Notes: generated by a model not told the origin, from the sequence alone. A stretch of 64,000 nt of DNA from an uncultured Gammaproteobacteria bacterium (GCA_964629685.1 CAZVTT010000001.1:449319-513318); one strand, 5' to 3'. Shown: positions 664 to 58,085, numbered from the stretch's first letter. Numbers and translations are program-made.

Positions 664-666
664 ACA

Positions 667-1464: not shown

Positions 1465-1469
1465 TAACT

Positions 1470-4521: not shown

Positions 4522-5549
4522 TGGAAAGAATTCCGATATTCGTTTTTACCGGTTGCACTGCTACAGGAAAAACTGCGGCAGCGTTATCGTTTGCGAAAGA
4601 TATTGGCGGGGAAATAGTTAGTATTGATTCCAGGCAAATATATCGCCACCTGAACATCGGAACAGGAAAGGATATTCCGTCTGATGCTTTTCTACTTCCC
4701 AATACCGTTGTCGTAAATTTTAGAAAAGAAGAATGTTCAGTTTCTCCATACTCTATCTCAGACGTACCGGTTTGGTTGTATGACAGCATTAATCCAAACC
4801 AACAATGTAACATTGCGCTGTACAGTTTGTTAGCCCGCACTGTGATTCAGCATATACACGAGAGAAATAAACCGGTAATACTAGTTGGCGGAAGCGGGTA
4901 TTACCTTTCGTCCGTACTCATGGATATACCTACAATTCAAGTGCCCAGAAATGAATCATTACGACAGGAATTGAATGTTCTAACAGTTAGTGATTTACAG
5001 CAGCGGTTAATAGATATAAACGAATCGGTATTTACTACCATGAATGGTTCTGACAGATGTAATCCTCATCGCCTTATTCGGAAAATAGAAATAGCTATGT
5101 ATACCGGTTCCTCCATACAGCCAAGCCTGCATCCGGCATCATTGTATAACGCTACAATCGTGGCTTTTATCGCTACGAACGAATCATTAAAACAAAGAGT
5201 TACTCAGCGGGTAGACAAACGGCTAAAACAGGGAATAATATCGGAAATACGAGAGTTATTAAAGATAGGTTATAGCTGGGATTCACCGGGGCTTCAAACA
5301 ATAAGTTATATGGAGTGGAAACAATATATTACTTCTCAACATGAGAATGTACTGACACCGTCAATCCTAACTTCGGTACGGAATGAATGGATACGGCATG
5401 AATATCTTTACGCTAAGCGACAACTAACCTGGTTTCGGAAAATCCCTGATGTACACTGGATATCTGTCGACGATTCAGATTGGTCTGATAAGCTGGCTGC
5501 TTATCAGGATGCATGGTATACTATGGTTAAGAATGACTACAAAAGTTGA
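4521..5549 (+). CDS. miaA: tRNA dimethylallyltransferase
   Basis: P-loop FVFTGCTATGKTAAA and IPPT family motifs (SIDSRQIYRHLNIGTGK). Confidence 0.8.
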   Translation: MERIPIFVFTGCTATGKTAAALSFAKDIGGEIVSIDSRQIYRHLNIGTGKDIPSDAFLLPNTVVVNFRKEECSVSPYSISDVPVWLYDSINPNQQCNIALYSLLARTVIQHIHERNKPVILVGGSGYYLSSVLMDIPTIQVPRNESLRQELNVLTVSDLQQRLIDINESVFTTMNGSDRCNPHRLIRKIEIAMYTGSSIQPSLHPASLYNATIVAFIATNESLKQRVTQRVDKRLKQGIISEIRELLKIGYSWDSPGLQTISYMEWKQYITSQHENVLTPSILTSVRNEWIRHEYLYAKRQLTWFRKIPDVHWISVDDSDWSDKLAAYQDAWYTMVKNDYKS

Positions 5550-45184: not shown

Positions 45185-46009
45185 ATGAAACTATCGGAAG
45201 GTCAGATCCGCTCCTTTCAGGTATTTATCCTGGATTGGTGGGCAAAAAATAAGCGTGATTTGCCATGGCGTAAGACCAGGAACCCGTACAAAATACTGGT
45301 GTCGGAAATGATGCTCCAGCAGACACAGGTAAGTCGGGTGCTTCCAACCTATGTCGCTTTTCTTTTACGATTCCCTGACGTGAATGCCCTTGCGGGAGCA
45401 AGTACGGCAGATGTCCTGAAAGCCTGGAAAGGTATGGGGTATAATCGTCGGGCTCTGTACTTGCAGCGTACGGCCTATACGGTGGTGCAGGAGCACGGAG
45501 GAGTATTCCCCCGGAATGAACAATTACTGCGTAAGTTACCAGGTTTGGGTAAATATACTGTTCGAGCAATTATGGTGTTCGCATATGAGGAAAATGTTTC
45601 CGTTATAGATACAAACGTGCGGAAAATTTTAGAATATTATTTTTTCTCCGGGAGCAAGCCGGAGCAGCAGGTGTTGGAGGCAGTAGCAGATCAGTTAGTA
45701 CCACCGGGAAATTCCTGGAATTGGCATCAGGCACTCATGGATTATGGCGCGTTAGAAATGTCTAAGCTCGTGCCACGCATCCGTACAGGAGCAGCAGCAA
45801 AAATTCCATTTAAAGAGACGGCCAGATTTTATCGCGGCAGGGTAGTAGATGTGTTGCGGGAACGATCAATAGAGCAATCACAATTAGTGCATGATTTTTC
45901 TGCTGAATATGGAAAATCATTGGAGTACATAGAGGATATTATTAACGGGTTAGCCCGAGATGGCTTACTATTCCGTGATACTGATGGTATAATCTCGTTA
46001 CCGAAATAG
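45185..46009 (+). CDS. HhH-GPD superfamily base-excision DNA glycosylase (Nth/MutY-like)
   Basis: HhH LLRKLPGLGKYTVRAIMVFA followed by Gly/Pro-Asp loop; C-terminal region lacks the usual 4-Cys cluster. Confidence 0.7.
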   Translation: MKLSEGQIRSFQVFILDWWAKNKRDLPWRKTRNPYKILVSEMMLQQTQVSRVLPTYVAFLLRFPDVNALAGASTADVLKAWKGMGYNRRALYLQRTAYTVVQEHGGVFPRNEQLLRKLPGLGKYTVRAIMVFAYEENVSVIDTNVRKILEYYFFSGSKPEQQVLEAVADQLVPPGNSWNWHQALMDYGALEMSKLVPRIRTGAAAKIPFKETARFYRGRVVDVLRERSIEQSQLVHDFSAEYGKSLEYIEDIINGLARDGLLFRDTDGIISLPK

Positions 46010-46026
46010 ACGGTAATTCTATCATT

Positions 46027-46097
46027 TGCGGGATCGTATAATGGTAGTACGCATCCCTCTGGAGGATGTTATCTAGGTTCGAGTCCTAGTCCCGCAG
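46027..46097 (+). tRNA. tRNA-Gln (anticodon CUG)
   Basis: Cloverleaf folds: acceptor UGCGGGA/UCCCGCA with U1-A pair and G discriminator (both typical of bacterial tRNA-Gln). Anticodon stem CAUCC/GGAUG with loop CUCUGGA. T-arm CUAGG-UUCGAGU-CCUAG. D-loop has the GG. CCA not encoded exactly (CCCA follows). Confidence 0.75.
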
Positions 46098-46131
46098 CCC
46101 ATCCTTCGCTAAAGCTACGGAGTGGCTGCCT

Positions 46132-46425
46132 ATGTACTACGCGTACATTTTGCTAAGTTCAAAATCGCATATCTTCTATTACGGATTTACCCAAGACTTG
46201 AAGAACAGATATAAAATGCACTCCGAAGGAAAGGTTCCCTCAACGAAACCTCATATTCCGTGGAAATTAGTATGGTATGGAGCCTTTGAGACGGAGAAAC
46301 AAGCAAGAGATTTTGAACTTTATCTAAAAAGTGGTGCGGGTAAAGCATTTGCTTATAAACGGTTAGTGTCCGTAGCTTTGGCAAAGGATTTGGTTGAAGG
46401 ACGAAAAAGTGTTCCGAAGCTTTAG
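46132..46425 (+). CDS. GIY-YIG nuclease superfamily small protein
   Basis: YYAYILLSSKSHIFYYGFTQDLKNRYKMH matches the GIY-(10)-YIG spacing; 97 aa. Confidence 0.75.
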   Translation: MYYAYILLSSKSHIFYYGFTQDLKNRYKMHSEGKVPSTKPHIPWKLVWYGAFETEKQARDFELYLKSGAGKAFAYKRLVSVALAKDLVEGRKSVPKL

Positions 46426-46435
46426 CGTAGGACAT

Positions 46436-46448
46436 CTAGTCCCGCAGC
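46436..46448 (+). repeat. Direct repeat of tRNA-Gln 3' end (att-like)
   Basis: CTAGTCCCGCAGC identical to 46086-46098 (T-stem 3' half plus acceptor 3' strand). Followed by a GGGAGACTTGGACCGCAGAACCTAAAC motif that recurs at 47268-47292. Confidence 0.6.
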
Positions 46449-46573
46449 TGAGTCAAAGTAAGTACAAAACAAGGACAGGGAGACTTGGACCGCAGAACCT
46501 AAACAATCTTCTTCAATAAATACGTTATAATTCTTCATAAAACATAGAATTCTCCGTGTAACGCCTTAACTAT

Positions 46574-47197
46574 ATGGATAAACGTCAATTTATTTTTTAT
46601 CATAAAATTATTTCCTCAAGACTAAATGCATTTTTGGATCAATGGGATTTTCTAAATGTAGTTCCCCAAGGGATTGTTAATGAATATTCGGATCTAATCG
46701 GACCAATATTAGAGGAGTTACAAGTAAATAATGAAAAAGAATCATTAATTAGATTTGTGAATTATATTGTGGAAAGTCGATACGGATGTAAACCAAGTCG
46801 TACTGAATCATTTGTGAAGAGCATCTTATTGTGGTGGGTACAACAAAATACTGAAGTAGATCAAAGAGACATGGCAAGTAAACATAAAGTTCCTTTTTCT
46901 CCGATCGCACCACTGTCTATTATTGGTTTATCAGATAATACGGATGGTCTCATGATTCCCATAAATGGATTACGTCATCCTTCAAAAGAAAATTCAAATG
47001 GCTGGTTTATTTGGTCAGGAGAAGAATTAAAAGAAGATAAGGATTTTTTCAAACCGACTCATGTCGTTCACTTAAACGAAAGATGTCCTCAAGTATTAAA
47101 GTATCTCTGCCTACCACCAGGCTACAGGTTTCTTATTGATAATAAAGGATATGAAGATGTTTGGTTTGATGAAAAATTGCTGCAGATATTGGAATAA
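46574..47197 (+). CDS. Hypothetical protein (207 aa), possible immunity-protein-like fold
   Basis: No confident family; C-terminal GWFIWSGEE...THVVHLNERCPQVLKYLCLPPGYRF segment; bounded by tRNA-end-like repeats. Confidence 0.5.
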   Translation: MDKRQFIFYHKIISSRLNAFLDQWDFLNVVPQGIVNEYSDLIGPILEELQVNNEKESLIRFVNYIVESRYGCKPSRTESFVKSILLWWVQQNTEVDQRDMASKHKVPFSPIAPLSIIGLSDNTDGLMIPINGLRHPSKENSNGWFIWSGEELKEDKDFFKPTHVVHLNERCPQVLKYLCLPPGYRFLIDNKGYEDVWFDEKLLQILE

Positions 47198-47317
47198 TTT
47201 GAGTTGTAATAGGTTATAACTTGGGACACGTAGCCCAGCTAACTTTGAGCGAGTACAATATTGAACAGGAAGACCTGGACTTAGAACCTAACTTCGATAT
47301 CCGCTATAATCCGTTGC

Positions 47318-47776
47318 ATGAAGTATGAAATCCCCAATTATAAAACGATAGAAATACATACCATTATTTTGGATTTGAATGGGACACTTAGTGTAGGTGG
47401 AGTGTTAGTTGAAGGTGTTAAAGAAAGAATTCTGGAGTTGAAAAACCGTTTCAATTTCTATTTATTTTCAGGTGATACTCGGGGAAATGGGCAATTGATT
47501 GCAGATGAATTGGGAATCAATTTTGTAAAGGCGGGAACAGGAGAAGAAAAAAAGGCGGAATTAATGAAACTTAATCCTAATACATGTGTTAGTATAGGAA
47601 ACGGTTTAATAGATCTTGAGATTACTAAACTAGCACAATTAGGGATTATTACACTTCAGTCCGAAGGAATACACACGCAAACTCTTCTTGCCGCAGATAT
47701 TGTAGTACCCACTGTTAACGATGCATTAGATTTATTTCTTGACGAAAGAAGATTAATTGCGACTTTACGTAAATAA
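47318..47776 (+). CDS. HAD-superfamily-like small protein (motif I D-x-N variant)
   Basis: ILDLNGTL (motif I with Asn replacing second Asp), LFSGDT, conserved Lys, GNGLID (motif IV-like). Confidence 0.5.
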   Translation: MKYEIPNYKTIEIHTIILDLNGTLSVGGVLVEGVKERILELKNRFNFYLFSGDTRGNGQLIADELGINFVKAGTGEEKKAELMKLNPNTCVSIGNGLIDLEITKLAQLGIITLQSEGIHTQTLLAADIVVPTVNDALDLFLDERRLIATLRK

Positions 47777-47847
47777 CCGAACGTATAATTTGGGACACCC
47801 AGGGTATCCGAATGTTGAAATAGGAAATACCGGGCTTTTTATGCCGT

Positions 47848-47882
47848 AAAAAAAACGAGGTATCACTTCTCATGATACCTCG
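47848..47882 (-). terminator. Rho-independent terminator for the arsR-yciI-like operon (minus orientation)
   Basis: Minus strand reads CGAGGTATCA-tgagaag-TGATACCTCG followed by TTTTTTTT. Confidence 0.6.
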
Positions 47883-47903
47883 TTTATGCGGGTAGATAAA
47901 ATA

Positions 47904-48194
47904 TTACATCGGCATTGCTTCATACACACGCACACTTGTGATTATTGGACATTTTTCAAGAAGTTTTTCGACTTCTTTCATACTTACCGCGTTAATGATC
48001 GTATATCCAACGGTAGCATTCATGTCCTGTGGCAAATCTTTATTTCCTGTTTTAGTTACTTCTATTCCTGGACCGAAAGGATTACCACTATCTACTACTC
48101 TGTTTCCAAGCACTTCAAACCACTTTTTCCATCCTTCCATAACTTCCGGGGTATATTCCCACATACCTACATATAAGAGCATAAATTTTTTCAT
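47904..48194 (-). CDS. Small alpha+beta barrel protein (YciI/Dabb-like), uncertain family
   Basis: 96 aa, 7 nt downstream of arsR on the same strand; pattern MLLYVGM...GNPFGPG...GYTIINAVSMKEVEKLLEKCP. Confidence 0.4.
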   Translation of the reverse strand: MKKFMLLYVGMWEYTPEVMEGWKKWFEVLGNRVVDSGNPFGPGIEVTKTGNKDLPQDMNATVGYTIINAVSMKEVEKLLEKCPIITSVRVYEAMPM

Positions 48195-48200
48195 ATGATT

Positions 48201-48545
48201 TCACCTCCTTTCTTGTTTAAGATATTCGGTATAGTTACTTAAACGTTCTGCATCTGTACCCCAATATGCCTGGTATTGGGTTAACCACTGCTGAAGTGTG
48301 TAGAGCGATTTTCTATTTAGCGTCAGGAATACAATTCTTCCAGTCTTCTTGCGCAATATGATACCGGCATGATCAAGTATTTTTATATGTTTATGAATTG
48401 CAGGAAGTGATAACCCCTGCATTGATGCCAGGCGACTTATTGAAGTCGGTTGAAGACTTAACGTGTAGACAATATCTCTTCTGTGTTGATTGGCAAGTGC
48501 TTCTAAAATAATGTCTAATTGTTTAGTAGAATAACTTTTGGCCAT
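48201..48545 (-). CDS. ArsR/SmtB family transcriptional regulator
   Basis: wHTH with RRDIVYTLSLQPTSISRLASMQGLSLPAIHKHIKILDHAGII. Confidence 0.8.
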   Translation of the reverse strand: MAKSYSTKQLDIILEALANQHRRDIVYTLSLQPTSISRLASMQGLSLPAIHKHIKILDHAGIILRKKTGRIVFLTLNRKSLYTLQQWLTQYQAYWGTDAERLSNYTEYLKQERR

Positions 48546-48546
48546 A

Positions 48547-48570
48547 ATACTTAACTAATTAGTTAAGTAT
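48547..48570. promoter_or_regulatory. Perfect 24-bp palindrome abutting arsR start, candidate operator
   Basis: ATACTTAACTAATTAGTTAAGTAT is its own reverse complement; lies 2 nt upstream of the arsR start codon. Confidence 0.5.
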
Positions 48571-48841
48571 AGCGAATACATTATTATCTGACAATTCTCT
48601 TGTAACTTCTGAAAATTTAAGCTAATGACATATAAGAAGACGTATAACCTGGGGCATACAAGACGAAACCTATAACGAATGCTATGCTAGGGTAGTAAGC
48701 CTATAAGATATTTGTGTAGGAAATACCGTTTAAACAAGGTTAAAATGGAATTCAGAAAACCTAATATAGAGAATTGCAAAAGCATTTCGGTATTAATGTA
48801 ATAAAAAAAATACGATTAGAAAAAGCATATTTCATAGTGTT

Positions 48842-49249
48842 TTGTTATCCGTTGCAAGTGGTATTGTCTTTGTTAGCGGGATGTACTTCATAGCAAGTGT
48901 CCGGGGTTTATCCCATGCAACTCCCGCGAGTCTGCTACTATTTTGTATCCCTCTATTGGTGTTTTCGTGGCGTAAACAGGTAAAGACGGTTAAAGAAATA
49001 TTTGTATCTAATTTTTTTACCAGTCTGTGGATAATCGTCCCGGTATGTCTGTTAGTAGGGTATTTTTTTGCAACCTTTCAGTTTGACGAATTTGATTCCT
49101 ACAATGGTTTTAATGTGCGCGAGTTTTTTACATTTTCTGCGCTAATTTGTATTCCTGTTTTTCAGATTACGTACATTACCTTGTGTATCGGTAGTGGTAT
49201 AAAATTAGTTTTATACAAAAGGAAATTACGGTCACGTCCGTCCTGCTAA
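48842..49249 (+). CDS. Hypothetical membrane protein
   Basis: 135 aa with 4 predicted TM helices. Confidence 0.4.
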   Translation: MLSVASGIVFVSGMYFIASVRGLSHATPASLLLFCIPLLVFSWRKQVKTVKEIFVSNFFTSLWIIVPVCLLVGYFFATFQFDEFDSYNGFNVREFFTFSALICIPVFQITYITLCIGSGIKLVLYKRKLRSRPSC

Positions 49250-49306
49250 GTAATTGCTCGCGTAAAGCAAATATTCTTTTTGCTAAAGTCAGCATATAAT
49301 TGATTT

Positions 49307-49813
49307 ATGACTGATGAAGATTACATGTTGGCAGCAATTGCTCAAGCACAAAAGGCCGGCACAAATGGTGGGTTACCGTTAGGAGCCGTAGTAGTAAAAG
49401 AGGGCGAAATCATTGTTTCGGGAACCAGTCACGTCGGTGATTTTATGGACCCGACGGCACATGGTGAGTCTCTGGCAATCAGAAACGCCTGCAAAAAATT
49501 AAATACCTTAAATCTTTCGGAATGTATTCTATATACTACGCTTGAGCCTTGTTCCATGTGCTTGGCATGTGCCAGTTGGTGCGGGCTAAAACGTATTGTT
49601 TTTGGATCATACCGTACGGATATACCGGAAAATCCATATGAAATGGATAACTACCATGCCGAAGCACATGCTCGCCAATTAACGCCGATTGGCGGGGGTT
49701 CCATGATTGTAGATGGTGGCGTTCTCCGTAAAGAATGTGCTGCATTAATGCAGCATATGGTGAACTGGACAATCTCTGATGAGTTACAAACTATACATGA
49801 TGCGATGAAATAA
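49307..49813 (+). CDS. CMP/dCMP-type zinc deaminase (TadA/guanine deaminase-like)
   Basis: HGE...(about 28 aa)...PCSMC zinc-binding motif pair (H-x-E and PCxxC). Confidence 0.8.
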   Translation: MTDEDYMLAAIAQAQKAGTNGGLPLGAVVVKEGEIIVSGTSHVGDFMDPTAHGESLAIRNACKKLNTLNLSECILYTTLEPCSMCLACASWCGLKRIVFGSYRTDIPENPYEMDNYHAEAHARQLTPIGGGSMIVDGGVLRKECAALMQHMVNWTISDELQTIHDAMK

Positions 49814-49816
49814 TTG

Positions 49817-49859
49817 AGGTGGCTAGTTGGTTAGTCTGAACCAGAAGATAGCCACCTCT
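49817..49859 (+). terminator. Hairpin terminator between convergent deaminase and ytxH-like genes
   Basis: GAGGTGGCTA ... TAGCCACCTC 10-bp stem, 23-nt loop, T-rich tail. Confidence 0.45.
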
Positions 49860-49869
49860 ATTATCCTAC

Positions 49870-50127
49870 CTATTTTTCTACCGCTTTACGTACTTCCTTT
49901 TGTTCTTTCGCAGCTTTGTTTTTCAACGAATCTAAAGAATCTTCTATTGAATTTCCAGTATTTTTTACGGTATCAGCTACACGATCTTTTATATCTGAAA
50001 CGGTGTTGTTTATAGCAGTCCTTTTCTTTTTATCAGACAGTATCGCAGCTGCTGCAACTGCAATTCCGGCCACTACTGCACCCGTTGCTGCTCCCGCTAC
50101 TGCGGCGTTCTTATTGTTATTTTTCAT
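49870..50127 (-). CDS. YtxH-like (DUF948) general stress protein
   Basis: N-terminal Ala/Gly-rich helix NAAVAGAATGAVVAGIAVAAAAIL then charged coiled-coil tail. Confidence 0.6.
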   Translation of the reverse strand: MKNNNKNAAVAGAATGAVVAGIAVAAAAILSDKKKRTAINNTVSDIKDRVADTVKNTGNSIEDSLDSLKNKAAKEQKEVRKAVEK

Positions 50128-50161
50128 ATATTTATTCTTTCATTAAATAGTGTTAATAGCT

Positions 50162-50404
50162 TTATTTATGCAGTGCGCGTCCTAAGAAAATTAGGATGAT
50201 TGCACCAATCACGGCGACCACCAGACTGTAAAGATTAAATCCGGTTACACCTGGTTGTCCCAGGGTATTCATAACGAAACCACCAACGAATGCACCGACT
50301 ATTCCAAGTAAAATGTCTTCCAGCATCCCATGATTACTTTTCATGAGAACGTCTGCTATAAAACCTGCTAATGCTCCCAGTACAATCCAAAATATAATGT
50401 CCAT
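50162..50404 (-). CDS. GlsB/YeaQ/YmgE family stress-response membrane protein
   Basis: IVLGALAGFIADVLM...GIVGAFVGGFV...VVAVIGAIILIFL signature; RBS AAAGGA. Confidence 0.8.
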   Translation of the reverse strand: MDIIFWIVLGALAGFIADVLMKSNHGMLEDILLGIVGAFVGGFVMNTLGQPGVTGFNLYSLVVAVIGAIILIFLGRALHK

Positions 50405-50440
50405 ATTTTTCCTTTCTTAAAAATGTAATGTATTAACGTA

Positions 50441-50674
50441 TTAAGGCTCTTGATTAATATTTACGTCAATTTTATCCGGAACGTTAATCTGCGGCGTTTG
50501 AGATCCAGTTTGTGAATTATTAGATCTATCAGGTATGAACGTTTCCCGGAGTATTGGAATTCCAAACACCAGAAATAGAACTACGAAACCTATCAGGAAT
50601 ATCATTGCGAAAACGAGAGTAAAGTTATTTCCTGAATCCGTAGATGTTGCCGGATTATTTACTACTGTGGTCAT
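50441..50674 (-). CDS. Small membrane protein
   Basis: 77 aa, one TM, strong RBS AGGAGG 5 nt upstream. Confidence 0.5.
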   Translation of the reverse strand: MTTVVNNPATSTDSGNNFTLVFAMIFLIGFVVLFLVFGIPILRETFIPDRSNNSQTGSQTPQINVPDKIDVNINQEP

Positions 50675-50708
50675 ATATTCCTCCTAAATGATTAACGGGC
50701 AATAGTAT

Positions 50709-51212
50709 TTATTTTTTTTCAGTTTTTACACGCGCTTGAATAGTTACTTCCACATCGGCGATGTGCGATAATGTTTCATCTGCGTTTTCTTCATCCTCTA
50801 AGGTTAAACGTAAGAGTTCCGCTACATTCTCTTCTCCCAAAGCTAATGCAAATGCTAGAGCAGAACCATAACCGGCTATTTCATAATGTTCTACTCGTTG
50901 CGCAGCAGATATAATAGCTGCGTCAAGCGCATAAGACTGATCTTCTTCTAATAATTTGGCACCTTCTTGTAACAATCCTTCCATTCCTTTGCATTTTTCA
51001 CCACCTGTTTTAACTTTCAACTCTTCAGCTGCCTGTTCCAGGCGTATTACGTGCTCACGTGTCTGTTCTAAATGTTCTTCCAATGCTTCACGCAACGCTT
51101 TTGACGTGCATATTTTCGTCATTTTTGGTAAAGCTGCAATAATTTGTTTTTCTGCACTGTAAAGGTCCTGAATTTCATGGACCAGCACATCATCTAGTGT
51201 TTCAATTTTCAT
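50709..51212 (-). CDS. YciE/YciF-like ferritin-like (DUF892) stress protein
   Basis: IQDLYSAEKQ...ALEEHLEQTREHVIRLE...HYEIAGYGSALAFA pattern; RBS AGGAGA. Confidence 0.75.
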   Translation of the reverse strand: MKIETLDDVLVHEIQDLYSAEKQIIAALPKMTKICTSKALREALEEHLEQTREHVIRLEQAAEELKVKTGGEKCKGMEGLLQEGAKLLEEDQSYALDAAIISAAQRVEHYEIAGYGSALAFALALGEENVAELLRLTLEDEENADETLSHIADVEVTIQARVKTEKK

Positions 51213-51229
51213 GTTTTATCTCCTATTAA

Positions 51230-51310
51230 TTAAAAGAAATGGGTAACGACATAAAATAGAATTAATACGGATAAAGGAACTCCGAGTAACCATGCAAGTA
51301 TGTATCCCAT
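51230..51310 (-). CDS. 26-aa hydrophobic micropeptide (MGYILAWLLGVPLSVLILFYVVTHFF)
   Basis: ATG preceded by AAAGGAG 7 nt upstream; stop TAA 18 nt before the yciE-like RBS; below the ORF-track length cut-off. Confidence 0.45.
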   Translation of the reverse strand: MGYILAWLLGVPLSVLILFYVVTHFF

Positions 51311-51457
51311 ATTGACGCTCCTTTCACTTTTGAAACTTTTATTACTTTTAAGTGTAGTTAACGTCGGTGGGAATTCTGTCAGAAAAATGATAGAAAAACG
51401 TAAGAATGATTATTCCAGAAAGCTGATAATAGTAGCTTAGAATGGTATAATATATGT

Positions 51458-52129
51458 ATGATTCCTTACATTGTCTTGATTGAAGACGACAACGATATAC
51501 AAAAATATTTGAAGGAGTTACTGGTAGATAATAATTTTACCGTAAAAACCGCAACTACCGGAATTGCCGGTCTTACATTGGTAAAACGTGCGGAACCAAA
51601 TCTGGTGTTATTGGATTTAACGTTACCAGATATGAAAGGGGAAAGTGTTTGTACGGAAATACGAAAAGAATACCCTAATCTCCCGATAATTATGTTAACG
51701 GCCAAAGACCAAGTATCCGATAAACTTAAGGGGTTTACCTTAGGAGCCGATGATTATATTACCAAGCCATTTGTAGCTGACGAGTTGTTAGCCAGAATAC
51801 GAGCTAGGTTAAAGCATCTTATTGCAGACAATCCCACAATGAGTATAGATGATTTAACTTTGAATATCGCTACATTTGAAGTTAAACGGGGAGAAAAACC
51901 TATTCAGCTTACTCCACAGGAATTTAAACTTCTAGAGTTTCTTATAAGAAACAAAGGAACCGTTTTAACCCGAGATGTTATTTTGAATCGTATCTGGATG
52001 TATTCGCCTGACGTGGAAAGCCGAGTGGTGGACGTTTATATGGGTTACCTGCGTAAGAAAATTGATGCCGGTTACAAAAAGAAATTGCTGCACTCAATAA
52101 GGGGTTTCGGGTATACGGTTAAAGACTAG
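51458..52129 (+). CDS. OmpR-family response regulator
   Basis: Receiver (LIEDDNDI...LLDLTLPDMKG) plus winged-helix output (LTPQEFKLLEFL...GFGY). Extended -10 TGGTATAAT lies 9 nt upstream of the ATG. Confidence 0.85.
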   Translation: MIPYIVLIEDDNDIQKYLKELLVDNNFTVKTATTGIAGLTLVKRAEPNLVLLDLTLPDMKGESVCTEIRKEYPNLPIIMLTAKDQVSDKLKGFTLGADDYITKPFVADELLARIRARLKHLIADNPTMSIDDLTLNIATFEVKRGEKPIQLTPQEFKLLEFLIRNKGTVLTRDVILNRIWMYSPDVESRVVDVYMGYLRKKIDAGYKKKLLHSIRGFGYTVKD

Positions 52130-52133
52130 TTAT

Positions 52134-52508
52134 TTAATTCACTTCTTTTGCGGTATATCTGTTTACCTGTGAAATAAATTCATCGATTTCAAATGGTTTA
52201 CCAAGGAATATCTCGGCTCCTACATCTTTGGCAAGTTGCTGCATATTCTTCTGATTTGCGGACATAAGAAAAACGGGTACATTCTTTGTGGCGGCTTGGG
52301 ACTTAATTTCTTTTATTAATTTAGATCCATTTTTACCGGGCAATCTGTAGTCAATAATTATAAGTGCGGGAAAGTTTTGCTGTATGTGGGCTTTAAGTGT
52401 TTTACCGTTAGATAAAGAGATAACAGTATACCCTTCATACTCCAGATTTATTCGAAGAGCTTCAGAAAATGACTCGTCATCTTCAACCAGGATTATTGTT
52501 TTATTCAT
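52134..52508 (-). CDS. Single-domain response regulator (receiver only)
   Basis: ILVEDDESF...IIDYRLPGKNG receiver motifs, 124 aa. Confidence 0.75.
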   Translation of the reverse strand: MNKTIILVEDDESFSEALRINLEYEGYTVISLSNGKTLKAHIQQNFPALIIIDYRLPGKNGSKLIKEIKSQAATKNVPVFLMSANQKNMQQLAKDVGAEIFLGKPFEIDEFISQVNRYTAKEVN

Positions 52509-52527
52509 AGTATTAAATAGACAAATG

Positions 52528-54927
52528 TTAATTTAACGTTTTAGGAACCAGGGGGATAGTAAAGTAAAAGGTTGATCCTTTATGAAGTTCACTGTCTACC
52601 CAGATTTTACCACCACTCTTTTTAACTATTTCCGCGGCGATATACAAACCCACACCTAATCCAGAAGATGTGGTTTTTTCTGTAGAATTACTCCGGTAGA
52701 AAATATCAAATATTTTTTTAAAATCTTTCTTGGGAATGCCTACACCGAAATCCTGAACACTTATTTGTACTTCTTCATTCTCTATTTTTACATTTATATT
52801 TATACGGTTTGAATTGGGTGAATACTTTATGGCATTTTGAACTAAATTAATTAATACTTGAGCAAGTCTGTTTTTATCTGCCACAATATCCTGTTTTACC
52901 ATTCCCGTTCTATGAATGCTATGTGAAGGTACAGTGAACTGTAGTTCCTTTATTTGTTCGTCTAAAAATGTATCAATAGAAAACATTTCATAAAATAAAT
53001 CAAGTTTGTTATTCTGGATTCTGGTCATATCCAGCAAGTCCTTTATGAGACGAGCCAGATTGTCTGCCTTTGCATCTATCTTTGAAAGATACTCCTGACT
53101 TTTACTATCCTGAACTTTTGATAAATGCTTATTGAGTATGGCAACAAATGCTTTAATACTGGCTAACGGTGTCGTAAGTTCATGACTGGCAATCCCCAGT
53201 AAATGTTCCTGTCTTTTTTCTTCTACTTTCCGTTTGCTAATGTCACGCAATATCCACAGTTGCTGGTTAGGCAATACTTCGGTTTTAACGCTATACTCAA
53301 TTGGTATAATGTTTCCTTCATGAGAAACCATTTCCATTTCGCCACGGCCGTATCCGTGTGCGATATGGCTCTTAAGTTTTTTGGCTACAGCTTTTTTTCC
53401 GTTTGTGTGCAAGCGATCTGATAATTTGGAAAAAAGTAGCTGTGCACGGGGAAACTTAAACACATCGACTCCGGCTTTGTTTAAGTCAACTATTGTCAGA
53501 TTTTTATCCGTGATAATAATGGGATCTAAAGATGATTCAAAAACCGATTTAAATTTTTTCTCACTGTGCTTTAATCTCTCTTCAGAAATTTTTCTTTCAG
53601 TAATGTCCATCCCTATCCCCATCATTCTCAGAGAATTATTTTGCTTATCCTTAATAACTTCACCCTTTTTATATATCCATTTTACTTCTCCGTTGGGTAG
53701 TGCGATGCGAAATTCCTTTTCAAATCCGGAGCCAGTTTTTATTGCTTTCACCAACTCTTTCTGAACAGCTTTCCGATCTTCCGGATAAATACGATCCAGG
53801 AATTTTATTAGCGTACTGTCTTTGCTTTTACTGGAAATACCGTAAATCGATTTAAAACTTTCCGATAAGGCAAAAACATCATCGGAATAATTCCAGTCCC
53901 AGGTACTCATTTTTCCCATTTCTAACGCCAGACGTAACGATTTATCATACGTGTGCAGCACTCTGTACGTATTTTTCTGCTTTTTAATAATTCTTTTTGC
54001 ATGCTCATAAATTCGTGAATTGTCAAATAACGTAGCGGCGCGATGGGCGAAAAGTTCCAACATCTCCAAATCATCCGAGGTATATCTTCTGTCAGATTCG
54101 GAATATGCGAACGTTATTAATCCTAAAGCCCGTTTTCTTGTTATCAGGGGGACAGTGATTATTGAACGAATATTTAATTGTGAGAGTAAACGCAGATGTT
54201 CGTCATCTTTGGCTGCATTTTTAATATCAGTTTCGGTTATTTCCGGAAATAATACGGGTTTTTTGTTCTTTAATATTTGTATCAGGTTACTGTTGTTTTT
54301 TACCGAGGGGTATTTTTGATGAAGAATATCTGCAATCTTTATTTTCTTTGGATCGATATGTGAAATAGCTTTCCGTACCAGCGTTCCTTTCTCAGTTAAC
54401 ATGTCTATAGCACACCAATCGGCCATTTCAGGAACGATTAATTCTGCTAAACGCTTTACCCGACTTTCATAGTTAAGTATGGAAGCGAGCGAGCTGTTTA
54501 TATTTGTGAGTAGTGTAAAGGTTTTTTCCGAGCGTTTAAACTTGGTTAAGTCGTAAAAACTGTTTATAACACCGTTTATAACACCGGCCGAATCCGTGAA
54601 TGGTATTGCTTTAACCCAAGACCAATTATTCTTATTCTCGGATATATTCTTAAACCGAAGTATAGCTTCTTCGGGTAATCCGCTAAGGAGTGCCCTTCTA
54701 CCCGGAAGTTTTTGATATGGAAGCGGGTTTCCTGATTCGTCCAGTATCGTAAAGTTTTTCATAAGTTCGCCGGGTGGTAATTGAAAAAATTTTTCTGATG
54801 AAGAGAATCCCATAACGCGTAAGGCTTCTTTGTTTGCATAGAGTACTTTCCCTGACGTGTCCTGTATGGTTATTCCGTGGGGTAAAATGTCTAATATTTT
54901 CTCTATCGAAGTTGAAGTGATTTCCAT
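52528..54927 (-). CDS. Multi-PAS/GAF sensor histidine kinase
   Basis: H-box LGIASHELTTPLASIKA; G-boxes GVGLYIAAEIV and GSTFYFTIP; at least three PAS-like blocks and a GAF-like block upstream. Confidence 0.85.
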   Translation of the reverse strand: MEITSTSIEKILDILPHGITIQDTSGKVLYANKEALRVMGFSSSEKFFQLPPGELMKNFTILDESGNPLPYQKLPGRRALLSGLPEEAILRFKNISENKNNWSWVKAIPFTDSAGVINGVINSFYDLTKFKRSEKTFTLLTNINSSLASILNYESRVKRLAELIVPEMADWCAIDMLTEKGTLVRKAISHIDPKKIKIADILHQKYPSVKNNSNLIQILKNKKPVLFPEITETDIKNAAKDDEHLRLLSQLNIRSIITVPLITRKRALGLITFAYSESDRRYTSDDLEMLELFAHRAATLFDNSRIYEHAKRIIKKQKNTYRVLHTYDKSLRLALEMGKMSTWDWNYSDDVFALSESFKSIYGISSKSKDSTLIKFLDRIYPEDRKAVQKELVKAIKTGSGFEKEFRIALPNGEVKWIYKKGEVIKDKQNNSLRMMGIGMDITERKISEERLKHSEKKFKSVFESSLDPIIITDKNLTIVDLNKAGVDVFKFPRAQLLFSKLSDRLHTNGKKAVAKKLKSHIAHGYGRGEMEMVSHEGNIIPIEYSVKTEVLPNQQLWILRDISKRKVEEKRQEHLLGIASHELTTPLASIKAFVAILNKHLSKVQDSKSQEYLSKIDAKADNLARLIKDLLDMTRIQNNKLDLFYEMFSIDTFLDEQIKELQFTVPSHSIHRTGMVKQDIVADKNRLAQVLINLVQNAIKYSPNSNRININVKIENEEVQISVQDFGVGIPKKDFKKIFDIFYRSNSTEKTTSSGLGVGLYIAAEIVKKSGGKIWVDSELHKGSTFYFTIPLVPKTLN

Positions 54928-55054
54928 AAATATAAACCTGTTTTACATGAATATAGAAAGTTTGTATGCATATGTAGGTAACCGTGGGCTAAAAATATTT
55001 ATTATAATTCGGTTATAGTATGCACTATTTGCATCCGTATAAAGCAAGGTTTGT

Positions 55055-55076
55055 GTAAGAATACGGTAAGAATACG
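55055..55076. promoter_or_regulatory. Perfect tandem direct repeat, candidate response-regulator binding site
   Basis: GTAAGAATACG twice in tandem. A GTAAGAAT half-site also occurs at 51400-51407 upstream of the OmpR-type regulator gene. Confidence 0.4.
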
Positions 55077-55138
55077 CGCTAATTCCAAATGTATGATATA
55101 TTACGTTTATTATAAGGTCAAAATTAGAGGGAGATACT

Positions 55139-55555
55139 ATGAAAACTACACTAAATCCATATATCGGTTTTAAATCAAATGCCCGGGAAGCTATGGAATT
55201 TTATAAAACGGTATTTGGCGGAAAACTTACCATAAGCACGTTTAAAGATTTTCATGCTTCACAGGATGTTGCTGAAGATAACAAGATTATGCACGCCATG
55301 TTAGTTGCTGACAATGGAATTACGTTAATGGGTTCTGATACGCCAAATAGTATGACGTACAACGAAGGCAGCAGAATAAGTATCTCTTTAAGCGGAGATA
55401 ATGATTCTGAACTTCGGACGTACTGGGATAAACTGGCTGATGGCGGAACTGTTATTATGCCTTTTGATAAAGCCCCTTGGGGAGATACCTTCGGGATGCT
55501 ATCCGATAAATTCGGAATAGTCTGGATGGTTAATGTTATGGCTCCGAAAGCCTAA
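55139..55555 (+). CDS. VOC/glyoxalase-family protein (PhnB-like)
   Basis: 138 aa, GGKL...HAMLVADNGITLMGSD pattern. Confidence 0.65.
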   Translation: MKTTLNPYIGFKSNAREAMEFYKTVFGGKLTISTFKDFHASQDVAEDNKIMHAMLVADNGITLMGSDTPNSMTYNEGSRISISLSGDNDSELRTYWDKLADGGTVIMPFDKAPWGDTFGMLSDKFGIVWMVNVMAPKA

Positions 55556-55576
55556 AATACATCTGGTTAAATAGCC

Positions 55577-55834
55577 TTAATCGAATGGGGTTTTGATCGT
55601 CTTTTTCATGGGTCCCCATGTTTTGGTCCAACCTTTCGTCTTCCAACGAAATAGGAAGTGGATACTTACTCCGAGAAGGGCGCCGAGGATTATCCATGCT
55701 GCAACCCCATCCCAACCCCACCAGAGAAATATGCAGTAAGTGAGGACTATGAGGACAATCCATTTTATAACCCGAAATCTTGCCGATTGTCCATGTAGGG
55801 CTATGTATGACTCGCGTTGTAGAATTTTTTTCAT
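55577..55834 (-). CDS. Hypothetical membrane protein
   Basis: 85 aa, 2 TM. Confidence 0.35.
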   Translation of the reverse strand: MKKILQRESYIALHGQSARFRVIKWIVLIVLTYCIFLWWGWDGVAAWIILGALLGVSIHFLFRWKTKGWTKTWGPMKKTIKTPFD

Positions 55835-55924
55835 AATCTAATCAGCTTATCCATCATCCGCTTTATAGTTCGATAAATCTATTTAATTATAGAATACTTA
55901 ACTATTTATGATAAAGTAGGGTTT

Positions 55925-56518
55925 ATGCAAACTTATGTAGCTTTGTTGCGCGGGATTAATGTGGGTGGTAATTCGAAAGTGGAAATGTCCAAGCTTAAAT
56001 CCGTTATGGAAGAATTAGGTTATATACATGTATCTACCTACATTAATTCCGGGAACGTTATTTTTTCACATGTACAGCAGGAACCGGCTTTACTGGAAAA
56101 AAATATTGAAATTGCCGTGGAGCGGGTATTTGGTTTTCCCATTCCTGTTGTGGTGAGGAGTGCTCATAGTATTGCTTCTCTTTGCGCGGTAATTCCCAAA
56201 ACATGGAAGAATGACGATGATATGAAAACGGATGTGCTATTTTTACGTGAAGGATTTAAATCAAGTAGTACATTAGAAAAAATAAAAAGTAACCCGGATG
56301 TTGACACGATGAAATATTCACACGGAGCTATCGTGTGGAATTTAGACAGAAAAAAATACAATAAGAGCGGCATGCGAAAGTTTATCGGCACTTTGGTATA
56401 TAAAAACATGACAGCCAGGAACATAAATACGGTTAGGAAGCTAAATGAACTTATGAATGGGGAGGTTAAATCTGAAAAAAGTTTCAAAATTACCGGTAAA
56501 AAAACTCATTATTTGTAG
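55925..56518 (+). CDS. DUF1697 family protein
   Basis: YVALLRGINVGGNSKVEMSKLKSVMEELGY...YINSGNVIF signature. Confidence 0.7.
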   Translation: MQTYVALLRGINVGGNSKVEMSKLKSVMEELGYIHVSTYINSGNVIFSHVQQEPALLEKNIEIAVERVFGFPIPVVVRSAHSIASLCAVIPKTWKNDDDMKTDVLFLREGFKSSSTLEKIKSNPDVDTMKYSHGAIVWNLDRKKYNKSGMRKFIGTLVYKNMTARNINTVRKLNELMNGEVKSEKSFKITGKKTHYL

Positions 56519-56795
56519 CAGGGGACACAAATTCTATAAAAGCAGTGATTGTCCTGTTTGTCCAAAGTGCTGGTCCGGGTATTACCGAAAAACCATTACT
56601 CATGAATTTCCGGAAACTATCAGTTCACCAGCGCTCAGGGCGTTACTTAACGCTAAAATTACAACATTATCGCAGTTGGCAAAACATACAGAAACAGAAC
56701 TTCTCGCATTGCATGGTATGGGGCCAAGTACTATTCCCAAACTTCGGGTAGCTTTAAAAGCCAAAGGGTTGGCGTTTAAACCGGAAAAGTTTTAG
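56457..56795 (+). CDS. Hypothetical Zn-ribbon plus helix-hairpin-helix protein
   Basis: CxxC...CPKC pair and C-terminal HhH-like LALHGMGPSTIPKL. The start is uncertain because it overlaps DUF1697 by 62 nt. Confidence 0.4.
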   Translation: MGRLNLKKVSKLPVKKLIICSRGHKFYKSSDCPVCPKCWSGYYRKTITHEFPETISSPALRALLNAKITTLSQLAKHTETELLALHGMGPSTIPKLRVALKAKGLAFKPEKF

Positions 56796-57370
56796 TATAT
56801 TTTTTCTTTCGCTTTCATGAGCGAAAGAAGTGCTTCGAATCTTCTTTTTCTTGTTTCCGGTTTTACCGCCGTATTTAGTCGGAAGGCAATAGCGAAGGTA
56901 TTTGCTTTTGTTAAAGTACTATAAAATTCAAAAGCATCCGGATATTTGCGTAATTCCTTCACAAAATCATTAGGAACTTTCATGTCTTTAGGTGAATCAT
57001 ATGCACGCTCCCATCTACCGTCTGACTTTGCAGCTTCTACTTCTTTTAATCCACCGGGTTTCATTTTATTTTCGATAATTAGGTTTTCAACAATATTTCT
57101 GTTAATTTTTGACCAGATGCTTTTTTGCCTTCTGGGGGAAACCTTTTGTAAATATTCTTTGGAATCCAAACTATTTACCACACTATCTATCCACCCGTAT
57201 ATTAAGCATCCTTCACGCAGTTCTTCGTAGGTAATGGATGTTATGCCGCTGTCTTTTTTTGCCAGCTTTATCCATACAGCTGAGGAGTAATTAGCAGCAT
57301 TCTTTTCGAGCCATTTAATCCAATCAGGGTAAGTAGGAAATTGAAGAACTTCTAATCCTTTATGTGTCAT
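56792..57370 (-). CDS. YdeI/OmpD-associated family protein
   Basis: 192 aa; pattern YPDWIKWLEKNA...VWIKL..K......ITY.E..E..L..GWID. Confidence 0.55.
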   Translation of the reverse strand: MTHKGLEVLQFPTYPDWIKWLEKNAANYSSAVWIKLAKKDSGITSITYEELREGCLIYGWIDSVVNSLDSKEYLQKVSPRRQKSIWSKINRNIVENLIIENKMKPGGLKEVEAAKSDGRWERAYDSPKDMKVPNDFVKELRKYPDAFEFYSTLTKANTFAIAFRLNTAVKPETRKRRFEALLSLMKAKEKIY

Positions 57371-57523
57371 ATATATAGACTTGTGTTTGTTAGATATGAT
57401 AACAAATCATACTAGGAAATTATAATGTCAAAATGTATTTAATATGCACCTAAAATTGTACTTTAGTAATATTGTTATATAATCACTTCGAATCTTTCCC
57501 AAAATCCAATCCGTGCAATTCAT

Positions 57524-57742
57524 ATGAATCAACTAATACATAATTCTGTGCTAGCAAAACGACTACAACACAAAATAACGCAGGAAGAATTGGCGCGAGC
57601 AGTTAGCGTCACGCGTCAAACAATTATTGCCATTGAAAAAGGAAATTATACCCCATCCGTAGTATTGGCTCTAAAATTGGCAAAATATTTTAAGACTAGT
57701 GTGGAATCATTATTTGGATTGGAGGAAGAGTATGTTGGTTGA
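57524..57742 (+). CDS. XRE-family HTH transcriptional regulator
   Basis: [39 protein letters not shown] Cro/C1 HTH. Confidence 0.8.
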
Positions 57743-58085
57743 AACTCTAAGCGCGTTAATTATTCTGGGAATCGCAATTCTTTTCTTAAATCCGGGTAAT
57801 TTGTCTATGCCGGAGAGTATGGTTTCGATAATGATTGTTACGATTATTATTGCGTTTTTGGCTTTTGCGGCTTTTTTGTTGAAAGAGCAGTCATCTGATG
57901 AACGTGAAGCCATACACGTACTGACTGCAGGTAGAATATCATATTTAGCAGGTGTGGGAGCGCTTATTCTCGGAATAATAATCCAGGGTTTAAAGCATGA
58001 AATCGATGCTTGGCTAGTTATTTCTCTTTGTGTAATGGTTTTTACGAAGCTTCTTTCACGTATATACTCTCACTTTAGAATGTAA
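57732..58085 (+). CDS. Membrane protein partner of the XRE regulator (DUF2178-like)
   Basis: Start at the ATG with GGAGGAAGAG RBS, overlapping the regulator's stop; 3 TM. Confidence 0.5.

Follow-up and report, generated by a model that had tools for sequence, protein, structure and literature searches.

The 64-kb stretch of DNA analysed here, which we refer to as the window (CAZVTT010000001.1:449319-513318, deposited as an uncultured Gammaproteobacteria bacterium, GCA_964629685.1), contains a single tRNA gene, a tRNA-Gln(CTG). Directly behind it lies a mini-element whose only gene encodes a small GIY-YIG nuclease, followed by a series of accessory genes (Table 1).

The tRNA-Gln locus and its mini-element

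ARAGORN places the tRNA at 46026-46101 and Rfam at 46027-46097 (RF00005, 60 bits). Numbered from the sequence, U1 is at 46027 and pairs with A72, G73 is at 46097 and C74 at 46098. An Rfam scan of 45-50 kb at E <= 1 returned no RNA family besides the tRNA. The sequence CTAGTCCCGCAGC, which corresponds to tRNA positions 62-74, occurs exactly twice in the window (46086-46098 and 46436-46448), and the two copies flank the GIY-YIG open reading frame (ORF). The original prediction had read the region as an array of small cassettes separated by degenerate repeats of the tRNA 3' end, and it was right that the last 13 nt of the tRNA return exactly after the GIY-YIG gene: they form a unique pair in the 64 kb. 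It had also named a genome-wide intergenic motif, independent of the tRNA, as one explanation that would undo it. This can be rejected, given that the 13-mer, the inverted repeat described below and the intergenic motifs are all confined to this locus within the window.

What the original prediction had overlooked is that the GIY-YIG gene is also bounded by a 20-nt inverted repeat, TCCTTCGCTAAAGCTACGGA, found at 46102 (+), 46369 (-) and 46413 (-), with 0 copies expected by chance. We distinguish a left terminal repeat (LE), a right terminal repeat (RE) and an internal inverted copy of LE in the 3' part of the ORF (IRi). The bounds of the element are set by the junctions GC/N-ATCC... and ...GGATA/CC (slashes mark the junction), which are found in 30 or more loci, and by the empty sites of relatives. 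The extended LE hairpin, at 46096-46127, includes pairing with the tRNA's own G73-C74. At the right, the RE end is mutated in the window (GGACAT versus the consensus GGATAC). The nearest relative, locus L199 (92% amino acid identity), which sits in another genome behind a different tRNA-Gln(CTG) gene and has an exact 14-nt repeat, keeps the canonical end GGATA/CC. The flank that follows the second tRNA-end copy, TGAGTCAAAGTAAGTACA, resembles the flank that follows the tRNA in the relative L176, CTGAGCGAAGCCAAGTCA, and this copy together with its flank is therefore the original 3' context of the tRNA. Only one copy of the element is visible in the window. Approximately 30 nt separate the tRNA from the ATG, and no promoter-like site was seen there.

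The 97-aa protein matches PF01541 over residues 1-67 (E 5e-13) and none of the NCBIfam models. In the AlphaFold2 model (predicted local distance difference test score 83.7) it consists of one GIY-YIG domain plus a C-terminal helix, with no extra DNA-binding domain. The only solved relative by sequence is the UPF0213 protein BH0048 (PDB 1ZG2, E 1e-4), and Foldseek matched the model to 1ZG2 and to the Slx1 nuclease domain at 26-30% identity, and only weakly to I-TevI and UvrC. The catalytic residues Y5, Y16 and E62 are invariant in the family. As this is the only ORF of the element, no DDE, HUH, serine or tyrosine transposase is encoded. A phage origin was rejected, with tblastn against 50,697 phage records giving no match to the GIY-YIG protein and the LE motif being absent from IMG/VR. 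A plasmid search gave one weak and uninformative match, a Sphingomonas pseudogene without the SRM hairpins discussed below. A group I/II or bulge-helix-bulge (BHB)-type intron in the tRNA was likewise rejected: a complete tRNA lies upstream of the insert, which has no ribozyme-sized non-coding part.

Table 1. Features at the tRNA-Gln locus and in the genes behind it (positions in the window; DR1 and DR2, the two copies of the tRNA end).
Feature	Position	Strand	Basis or remark
tRNA-Gln(CTG), target of the element	46027..46098	+	ARAGORN, Rfam RF00005; insertion leaves the gene intact
DR1, tRNA positions 61-74 (CCTAGTCCCGCAGC)	46085..46098	+	last 13 nt repeated exactly as DR2
Whole GIY-YIG mini-element, 337 nt (LE, ORF, IRi, RE)	46099..46435	+	conserved junctions, empty sites of relatives
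LE, left terminal repeat ATCCTTCGCTAAAGCTACGGAGT	46101..46123	+	inverted-repeat search, conservation
97-aa single-domain GIY-YIG nuclease gene (UPF0213/Slx1/Ssn-like)	46132..46425	+	PF01541
IRi, internal inverted LE copy in the 3' part of the ORF, codons SVALAKD	46367..46389	+	22-nt complementarity to LE
RE, right terminal repeat/hairpin TCCGAAGC-TTTA-GCGTAGGA plus CAT	46411..46435	+	stop codon in the RE loop
DR2, exact second copy of tRNA positions 62-74	46436..46448	+	original tRNA 3' flank comes next
Intergenic unit 1: RE end, DR2, ~55 nt (..GGAGACTTGGACCGCAGAACCTAAAC..), TATAAT	46429..46533	+	MAFFT, local alignment
207-aa protein with C-terminal Imm33-like immunity domain, accessory	46574..47197	+	PF24719, E 4e-37
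Intergenic unit 2, diverged paralogue of unit 1 (TATAACTTGGGACAC-GTAGCCCAGC-..GAAGACCTGGACTTAGAACCTAAC..TATAAT)	47215..47312	+	alignment
152-aa HAD-like hydrolase fragment-like protein, accessory	47318..47776	+	PF00702 below cut-off
Third TATAAYYTGGGRCA copy, no other homology to units 1/2	47784..47797	+	motif search
96-aa protein and ArsR/SmtB-type regulator, two-gene unit	47904..48545	-	ORF and family scans
Fourth, weaker copy of the TATAAYYTGGGRCA motif	48643..48656	+	motif search

Relatives of the element in Patescibacteria

A genome scan with one genome per species yielded 52 homologous loci in Patescibacteria (274 kb), and hundreds of relatives at 71-79% identity are annotated merely as 'GIY-YIG nuclease family protein'. 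They occur in Pacebacteria, Portnoybacteria, Moranbacteria, Shapirobacteria, Saccharibacteria, Woesebacteria and other groups. A same-strand tRNA ends at most 250 nt upstream in 31 of the 52 loci, and within 100 nt in 27. The tRNAs are Ser-GCT/GGA/CGA, Gln-CTG/TTG, Asn, Leu and Gly, with Thr and Lys among more distant homologues, and a tmRNA precedes the gene in the distant L042, L043 and L046. In 21 of the 52 loci the local tRNA 3' end (at least 13 nt, range 13-16) recurs exactly, 1-40 nt past the stop codon; the repeat ends where the tRNA ends, and its sequence varies with the local tRNA. The chance of a match of at least 13 nt between such short segments is, by our own estimate, about 1e-4 per locus. 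Beyond these 21 loci, the local-tRNA repeat is found in the window and in L181, L187 and L199. The target must be the source of the repeat, since the repeated sequence changes from locus to locus and matches the local tRNA every time. Whichever tRNA is concerned, its register is approximately tRNA positions 61-74, with a length of 13-14 nt, or up to 16 nt by a coincidental CCA. Such a fixed register would fit a target duplication of fixed geometry rather than an attachment (att) core.

The architecture is equally constant. At the left junction the tRNA (...C61...G73 C74) is followed across phyla by LE as N-ATCCTTCGCTAAAGCTACGGAAT-N'-GC, so that the junction reads GC/N-ATCCTTCGCTAAAGCTACGGAAT. 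After LE come 8-60 nt, then the ATG and the ORF with IRi (TCCGTAGCTTTAGCGAAGGAT), then about 25 nt, and then RE as TCCGAAGC-loop-GCG(T/A)AGGATA, which often holds the stop codon and meets the flank at TCCGAAGC..GCGTAGGATA/CC. Past RE the segment C61...C74 appears again, often continued by CA (the original CCA and flank) and frequently with a terminator hairpin. The terminal inverted repeats, (N)ATCCTTCGC...GCG(A/T)AGGATA, are thus conserved across phyla. The protein tree is not congruent with host taxonomy and partly follows the target, with switches between tRNA types: a Gln cluster spans Parcubacteria and Saccharibacteria, a Gly cluster exists, and the window copy groups with L033. This is probably a compact selfish element, widespread in Patescibacteria, with a single-domain GIY-YIG nuclease of about 97 aa as its sole gene.

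Related genomes had been suggested as the place to look for an empty site, and three of them hold the tRNA-Gln without the element. L176, L177 and L179 keep the upstream synteny (Era, Glucodextran_B-like, DUF5666, HhH-GPD, then tRNA-Gln(CTG)), with HhH-GPD identities of 87, 70 and 66%. The tRNA is identical in L176 and L177 and has the same 3' end in L179. The element is absent from all three, each has different downstream genes, and they represent different species, not strains. In L177 (2848-2862) the tRNA is followed by CCCATTCTTGATAAG, which is identical in 8/9 positions to CCCATCCTT of the window, including the start of LE; this could be an excision footprint or chance. A strain-level empty allele was sought on contigs with an identical HhH-GPD protein, and one contig break was all that was found. 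The assembly of sample SRR14271365 breaks inside the tRNA-Gln 3' end, at the element junction (3' end of L198, 5' end of L055), which could reflect coexisting occupied and empty alleles, a hint rather than evidence. Similarly, metagenome contigs frequently break at the element, which is only a hint of multiple copies per genome. Among 120 metagenomic loci that have this tRNA 3' end, not one has LE directly behind it.

Other loci record rearrangement and decay. An identical protein, P0042, follows tRNA-Ser(GCT) with the exact 14-nt repeat in 5 places. In L182 (= L008) its left flank is swapped for non-tRNA sequence and its right flank is kept, a pattern that would be expected from recombination between copies. 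P0035, an identical element within one population (L187-L196), has at least four different right flanks, all starting within 5 nt of DR2. L008 also holds a solo LE relic with a DUF1801 gene after it, and L085 a 109-nt derivative without an ORF. Besides LE, IRi and RE this derivative retains the ATG plus five codons, and a copy of the tRNA-Gln end lies on either side of it, one degenerate and the other with a single mismatch. Across about 1 Mb of related DNA, a GIY-YIG ORF or a truncated remnant of one comes after every LE copy, apart from the solo LE of L008.

The surroundings of these copies are of interest in themselves. A large serine recombinase gene (L195, in a population unrelated to that of the window, 448-1950, minus strand) abuts the DR2 flank of the P0035 element, and the duplicated tRNA end may be a secondary attachment site there. 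The strains L181 (2800-3400) and L183 (1388-1830) have identical flanks and wholly different blocks of 0.4-0.5 kb right after DR2; one such block contains a pseudo-tRNA end, the solo 20-nt LE (L008, 3376-3395) and the DUF1801 gene. The L085 derivative (4150-4603) is located about 720 nt behind tRNA-Gln, past a 230-aa ORF, and is directly followed by a classical UPF0213-type GIY-YIG gene (88 aa).

Pairing within the repeats was tested on 28 aligned loci, in which the LE hairpin is 96% paired. The N-N' pair of this hairpin is AU in 18 loci, CG in 5 and UA in 5, never unpaired, and the two basal pairs are made with the tRNA's own G73-C74. The complementarity between LE and IRi, 22 nt long, is 90% paired, compared with 34-47% in slid controls. 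Five of its pairs change on both sides (38 cells versus 12.9 in shuffles), which 0 of 500 shuffles reach. Synonymous changes in IRi are matched in LE (GCT to GCC, AAG to AAA, TTA to TTG), and so is one change from Val to Glu. RE combines an outer stem of 3 bp with a conserved 3x3 purine internal loop and a covarying inner stem, with the pairs GC/GC, GT/AC, GTC/GAC, AC/GT and ACC/GGT. When tRNA and element are folded together as RNA, the minimum free energy (MFE) has a z of -3.7, LE and IRi pair, and the 5' acceptor strand of the tRNA pairs with DR2. The ORF is under purifying selection, with a ratio of nonsynonymous to synonymous substitution rates (dN/dS) of 0.05-0.16, a median of 0.08 and a value of 0.05 for pairs that include the window copy; dS is saturated. 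LE stays near-invariant while dS is saturated, which implies selection on the DNA or RNA itself.

Several loci depart from the common form. RE halves are tandemly duplicated (e.g., GCGTAGGATG-CTAA-GCGTAGGATA), or two full RE copies precede DR2, in L007, L013, L016, L020, L021 and L037. In L022, L029 and L041 the LE loop is enlarged by hairpin-like insertions of 35-45 nt that leave both LE arms intact. GC-rich repeats rich in CTTCG/CTCAGG stand directly after the tRNA or DR2 in L002, L025, L033, L049, L059, L067, L081, L136 and L144 and follow many tRNA genes in those genomes; similar hairpins containing CTTCGC precede the tmRNA-associated distant GIY-YIG genes (L043, L046). Finally, behind many tRNA-Gln genes of Patescibacteria the 3' part of the gene is repeated in tandem partial copies, with short, hairpin-rich spacers that start with TTTGG (L084, L101, L107, L129, L154, L166 and L109, the latter with three copies at a 124-nt period), and in L088/L092 a 52-nt insert lies between exact copies of CCTAGTCCCGCAGC. 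Both are a second, different kind of tRNA-end duplication, because LE/RE and the GIY-YIG gene are absent there.

Genes downstream of the element

The original prediction had extended the tRNA-derived repeats to the intergenic regions further downstream. Region 1 (46426-46573) and region 2 (47198-47317) are indeed related, with a local alignment score of 30 against a maximum of 27 in 300 shuffles, and MAFFT extends the homology to about 75 nt (GGACAY, the tRNA-end-like block, ~55 nt and TATAAT). The two units are approximately 30% diverged, while DR1 and DR2 are identical over 13 nt. The motif GGARACYTGGAC..GAACCTAA is confined to regions 1 and 2 in the window, and regions 2, 3 and 4 share only TATAAYYTGGGRCA, a 15-nt motif (47215, 47784 and 48643). 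Compared directly with the tRNA, neither GTAGCCCAGC in region 2 (p 0.54) nor CCCAGGG in region 3 (p 0.05) is significant, and none of regions 2-4 is significantly tRNA-like in this comparison. The intergenic motifs belong to this genome alone, recurring only in its strain copies L053-L055 when about 1 Mb of related DNA was searched.

The first repeat is therefore real and far beyond chance, the second is partly real, in that region 2 carries a degenerate copy of the tRNA end visible only through its homology to region 1, and the others are unsupported, regions 3 and 4 having nothing but TATAAYYTGGGRCA in common. The claim that every gene is bracketed by att-like tRNA remnants is not supported. 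A second, degenerate tRNA-end copy flanks the Imm33-like gene only, and no tRNA-derived repeat could be demonstrated at the HAD-like gene or the ArsR pair. Insertion at the tRNA-Gln 3' end that leaves a direct repeat stands; for the first unit, the idea of a cassette made by an integrase gives way to an inverted-repeat element with a fixed register. The absence of an integrase from the array was borne out by a Pfam scan of the ORFs of 44-64 kb and the ten largest ORFs of 0-35 kb, which found none. No R''/R' (RYYYAAC/GTTRRRY) pairs, as in the attC sites of integrons or of clusters of attC sites lacking integron-integrases (CALIN), were seen between the genes, by eye only.

The gene content is accessory-like, as had been proposed, in its low GC and its variation between relatives and strains. 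G+C is about 0.43-0.45 ahead of the tRNA and drops to 0.35-0.39 behind it (window 46001-58000), which fits an accessory region beginning at the tRNA. The Imm33-like domain comprises residues 97-199 of its protein, and the N-terminal region of about 95 aa has no family match. Homologues of the protein are nearly all the 115-aa domain alone, mostly from bacteria outside the candidate phyla radiation (CPR). The only full-length homologue (L180) has immunity-type genes as its neighbours and neither a tRNA nor repeats around it. The HAD-like protein has weak matches to P-type ATPase HAD domains, and a bidirectional terminator lies at 47853-47885. The Imm33-like, HAD-like and ArsR genes are not part of the mini-element. 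The safest reading is that the tRNA end and its duplicate mark a hot spot of recombination or integration, with the downstream genes as accessory cargo, given the strain-variable flanks after DR2, the L085 arrangement and the drop in GC after 46 kb.

Mobility, a proposed mechanism and rival explanations

What, then, is the segment 46099-46435? Its anatomy, its conservation over many loci, the association with tRNA genes, the duplication, the empty sites, the products of decay and rearrangement and the purifying selection on its gene and its repeats are all observed, and together they make it probable that this is a mobile element resembling an insertion sequence (IS), with a duplication derived from its target. 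Like insertion sequences in general, it has terminal inverted repeats, a target-dependent duplication of fixed length, and presence or absence at orthologous sites. Our literature search found no description of GIY-YIG elements with tRNA-end duplications.

The closest known system appears to be the Ssn family, 94-aa single-domain GIY-YIG proteins (cd10448) with NTS/SRM hairpins on both sides (Chenal et al., 2025, Nat Commun, PMC11893778). Ssn proteins bind the hairpin only as single-stranded DNA (ssDNA), on one strand, cut a few nucleotides upstream of it and are inactive on double-stranded DNA and RNA (PMC11893778). The authors likened NTS-ssnA-NTS to an insertion sequence and proposed domestication, with mobility merely as a hypothesis; the terms tRNA, duplication and Patescibacteria are absent from the main text (PMC11893778). 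In both systems the protein measures about 94-100 aa, consists of a single GIY-YIG domain and lacks a DNA-binding domain, hairpin inverted repeats of 20-50 nt stand on both sides of the gene, and the catalytic spacing is nearly identical (Y6, Y17 and E64 in SsnA versus Y5, Y16 and E62 here). The likeness lies in this architecture and spacing, not in an assignment to cd10448. The differences are that the stem is interrupted here by a 3x3 internal loop, and that the repeats here are single-copy ends of the element, whereas those of Ssn occur in hundreds of genomic copies.

Other systems share single features. IS200/IS605 and REP/RAYT elements rely on HUH tyrosine transposases, have their two hairpins on one strand and do not duplicate the target. 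They resemble the element in their small size, in ends that are imperfect hairpins read as ssDNA, and in site- and orientation-specific insertion by a short target, but the element itself has inverted ends and a GIY-YIG enzyme and makes a 13-14-nt duplication. Seg proteins (e.g., T4 SegB) exceed 200 aa, have DNA-binding domains and spread by double-strand-break repair between homologous alleles; these homing endonucleases have no terminal repeats and make no target duplication. T4 SegB is a free-standing GIY-YIG homing endonuclease in a tRNA cluster (PMC13096335). SegB and the element have in common that the gene for the GIY-YIG nuclease lies among or behind tRNA genes and that its spread is selfish. 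Nonetheless, a free-standing homing endonuclease was rejected, as the protein here has a single domain and the element has terminal inverted repeats and a duplication.

tRNA-targeting islands, tycheposons and phage att sites require tyrosine or serine recombinases and have identity blocks of variable length. The element resembles them in that the tRNA is restored when insertion takes place at its 3' end, a direct repeat of that end stays behind, and arrays or hot spots arise downstream; unlike them, it encodes no recombinase, keeps a fixed register and measures 0.34 kb. Casposons often insert at tRNA 3' ends and have a target duplication of 14-15 bp. They are 8-20 kb long and encode a Cas1 integrase and a polymerase (PMC4046053). 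Site-specific insertion and an unusually long target duplication are shared, but there is no homology to the element. In the CPR, insertions in rRNA genes that are neither group I nor group II introns encode GIY-YIG ORFs (Tsurumaki et al., 2024, PMC11270868). These occur in the same host group and likewise place GIY-YIG genes in insertions at structured-RNA genes, with the difference that the rRNA genes are interrupted; they may be relatives of the element.

Food for thought is how such an element could move, and the nicking and joining scheme that follows is a tentative proposal, modelled on Ssn. On the main reading, held as probable, the element inserts directly 3' of a tRNA or tmRNA gene, in the direction of that gene and ahead of the gene's own flank or terminator, and in doing so duplicates tRNA positions ~61-74 and keeps the tRNA intact. 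It is probably transcribed from the tRNA promoter, as the short spacer devoid of a promoter-like site implies co-transcription with the tRNA, and the LE hairpin, which starts at the processed 3' end of the tRNA, may also stabilise the mRNA. The nuclease would bind the end hairpins as ssDNA and nick one or two nt 5' of ATCC on each strand. The element is bounded 1 nt 5' of ATCC (2 nt at the left end in the window), on the top strand at the left and the bottom strand at the right, and such boundaries 1-2 nt 5' of ATCC would fit cleavage 5' of the hairpin by an Ssn-like enzyme bound to each strand's Y-type hairpin. For positions 61-74 to be duplicated, an empty tRNA gene would have to receive a top-strand cut after C74 and a bottom-strand cut opposite 60/61, which would produce 3' overhangs of 13-14 nt. 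The 3'-OH ends of the target could then be joined to the 5'-phosphate ends of the element, a polarity opposite to that of DDE transposition, and fill-in by host repair synthesis and ligation would create the duplication. In a variant, the 14-nt repeat would travel with the element and provide homology for re-insertion at a like tRNA end, through an RE-DR-LE junction arising from slippage between DR1 and DR2, with the LE:IRi stem bringing the repeats together. Such a travelling repeat would explain why sub-lineages are partially faithful to one repeat sequence. If the scheme were correct, a 97-aa nuclease of the Ssn type would be the sole enzyme of a new class of prokaryotic insertion sequences, hairpin-ended, targeting tRNA/tmRNA 3' ends and joining target 3'-OH to element 5' ends; we regard this as possible and advance it with limited confidence. 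In the window, genes for a type IV pilus ATPase, PilM, a ComM-like Mg-chelatase and RecJ lie upstream (13857-15533, 20293-21711, 24462-25982 and 33597-35249), and this machinery for ssDNA uptake and processing is a plausible entry route and source of substrate for an element with an ssDNA nuclease.

A number of points, among them the single copy visible in the window, weigh against mobility or against the proposed mechanism. About a third of the loci have no recognisable upstream tRNA and unmatched flanks, and DR2, exact in most loci, could be functional rather than a neutral scar. The saturation of synonymous sites between elements means that protein identity across phyla could reflect constraint, not recent transfer. 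Taken in isolation, the hairpins have little thermodynamic stability (ΔG -0.1 to -4.8 kcal/mol, z about 0), which suggests stabilisation by a protein, or action as a duplex or through long-range pairings. The SRM consensus of the Ssn hairpins, HGTCWYN(0-2)YYVSBRHN(0-5)WNVSBRGN(0-2)RNCYNB, matches neither the 64-kb window nor any of the 52 loci (274 kb), searched with a regular expression that did recover an NTS control sequence. A comparison of the element's interior with target repeats gave no signal of a guide-like complementarity (score 4.52 for the element's own repeat versus 4.54 for other repeats), and the pairing of DR1 with the segment after IRi in the MFE fold of the window is therefore idiosyncratic. 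Furthermore, a hydrolytic nuclease of 97 aa cannot join DNA alone, so that host ligation and repair have to be assumed, and every mechanistic step, nuclease activity, excision and insertion included, is inferred.

Three other explanations deserve consideration. Serial site-specific integrations at the tRNA-Gln 3' end, by an integrase since lost or acting in trans, would have left the repeats as att remnants. The variable flanks after DR2 among strains, the serine recombinase gene abutting one of them in L195, the swapped blocks of L181 and L183, the 230-aa ORF between tRNA-Gln and a degenerate tRNA-end copy in L085, the tRNA-end-like block of unit 2 and the drop in GC after the tRNA would all suit this scenario. 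We nevertheless judge it unlikely, since the repeat has the same length and register (~61-74) whichever of the unrelated tRNAs is concerned, conserved inverted repeats form the termini, and no integrase was found beside the element in the 52 loci or in the Pfam-scanned ORFs of the window; as for the other genes, regions 3 and 4 lack significant tRNA similarity and their motifs are private to this genome. Inverted termini with a target duplication of fixed length are a hallmark of DDE-type transposition, and the element could instead be non-autonomous, similar to a miniature inverted-repeat transposable element (MITE), with 13-14-bp duplications made by a transposase that recognises the ATCCTTCGC termini in trans and the GIY-YIG gene as a passenger. 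The ORF-less derivative in L085 would agree with this, as would the fact that a 97-aa hydrolytic nuclease is unlikely to be a stand-alone transposase. However, a passenger gene would hardly accompany nearly every LE in about 1 Mb of related DNA, L008 being the exception, or remain under strong purifying selection, and its coding sequence contains IRi and the 5' arm of RE. No copy was seen to have a transposase gene beside it, and we give this explanation very little credence.

The repeats could also act at the level of RNA, a live rival that is compatible with mobility. In its exclusive form, the gene would be an immobile, tRNA-linked host gene, LE a 5' stabiliser hairpin starting from the end processed by RNase Z/P, LE:IRi a regulatory or RNase III stem, RE a 3' hairpin and DR2 a functional mimic of the tRNA end. 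The covarying pairs of LE with G73-C74 of the tRNA, the covariation of LE and IRi even through codon changes, the low MFE of tRNA plus element with its paired LE:IRi and its acceptor strand bound to DR2, the missing promoter-like site before the ATG, and the exactness of DR2 in most loci despite saturated dS are all in line with such a role. An immobile host gene does not agree with the patchy distribution among syntenic relatives, the many tRNA species with a DR2 that always copies the local one, or the rearranged flanks, solo LE and ORF-less derivative. LE and RE are moreover mutually inverted, as expected of DNA ends and not of 5' and 3' RNA elements, and the characterised relative SsnA does not bind RNA (PMC11893778). 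In this exclusive form, the explanation appears highly unlikely to us. For the first unit of the proposed array, the integrase cassette is thus replaced by a nuclease-only, IS-like element with a fixed duplication of the tRNA end.

We know of no prokaryotic transposable element with a GIY-YIG nuclease as its only enzyme, and to our knowledge these elements provide the first evidence that Ssn-type modules of GIY-YIG nuclease and hairpins insert and turn over. If the nuclease has a defined ssDNA specificity, it would be an addition to the programmable tools for cutting ssDNA. For the genomes that carry them, these 0.35-kb units break metagenome assemblies at tRNA genes and create recombination hot spots beside them. 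For the family at large, the IS-like architecture of Ssn had left open whether it is a domesticated element or not. The elements of Patescibacteria supply a fixed target at tRNA and tmRNA 3' ends, a duplication derived from it, empty sites and decay products, and make the mobility of Ssn-type systems a directly testable question.

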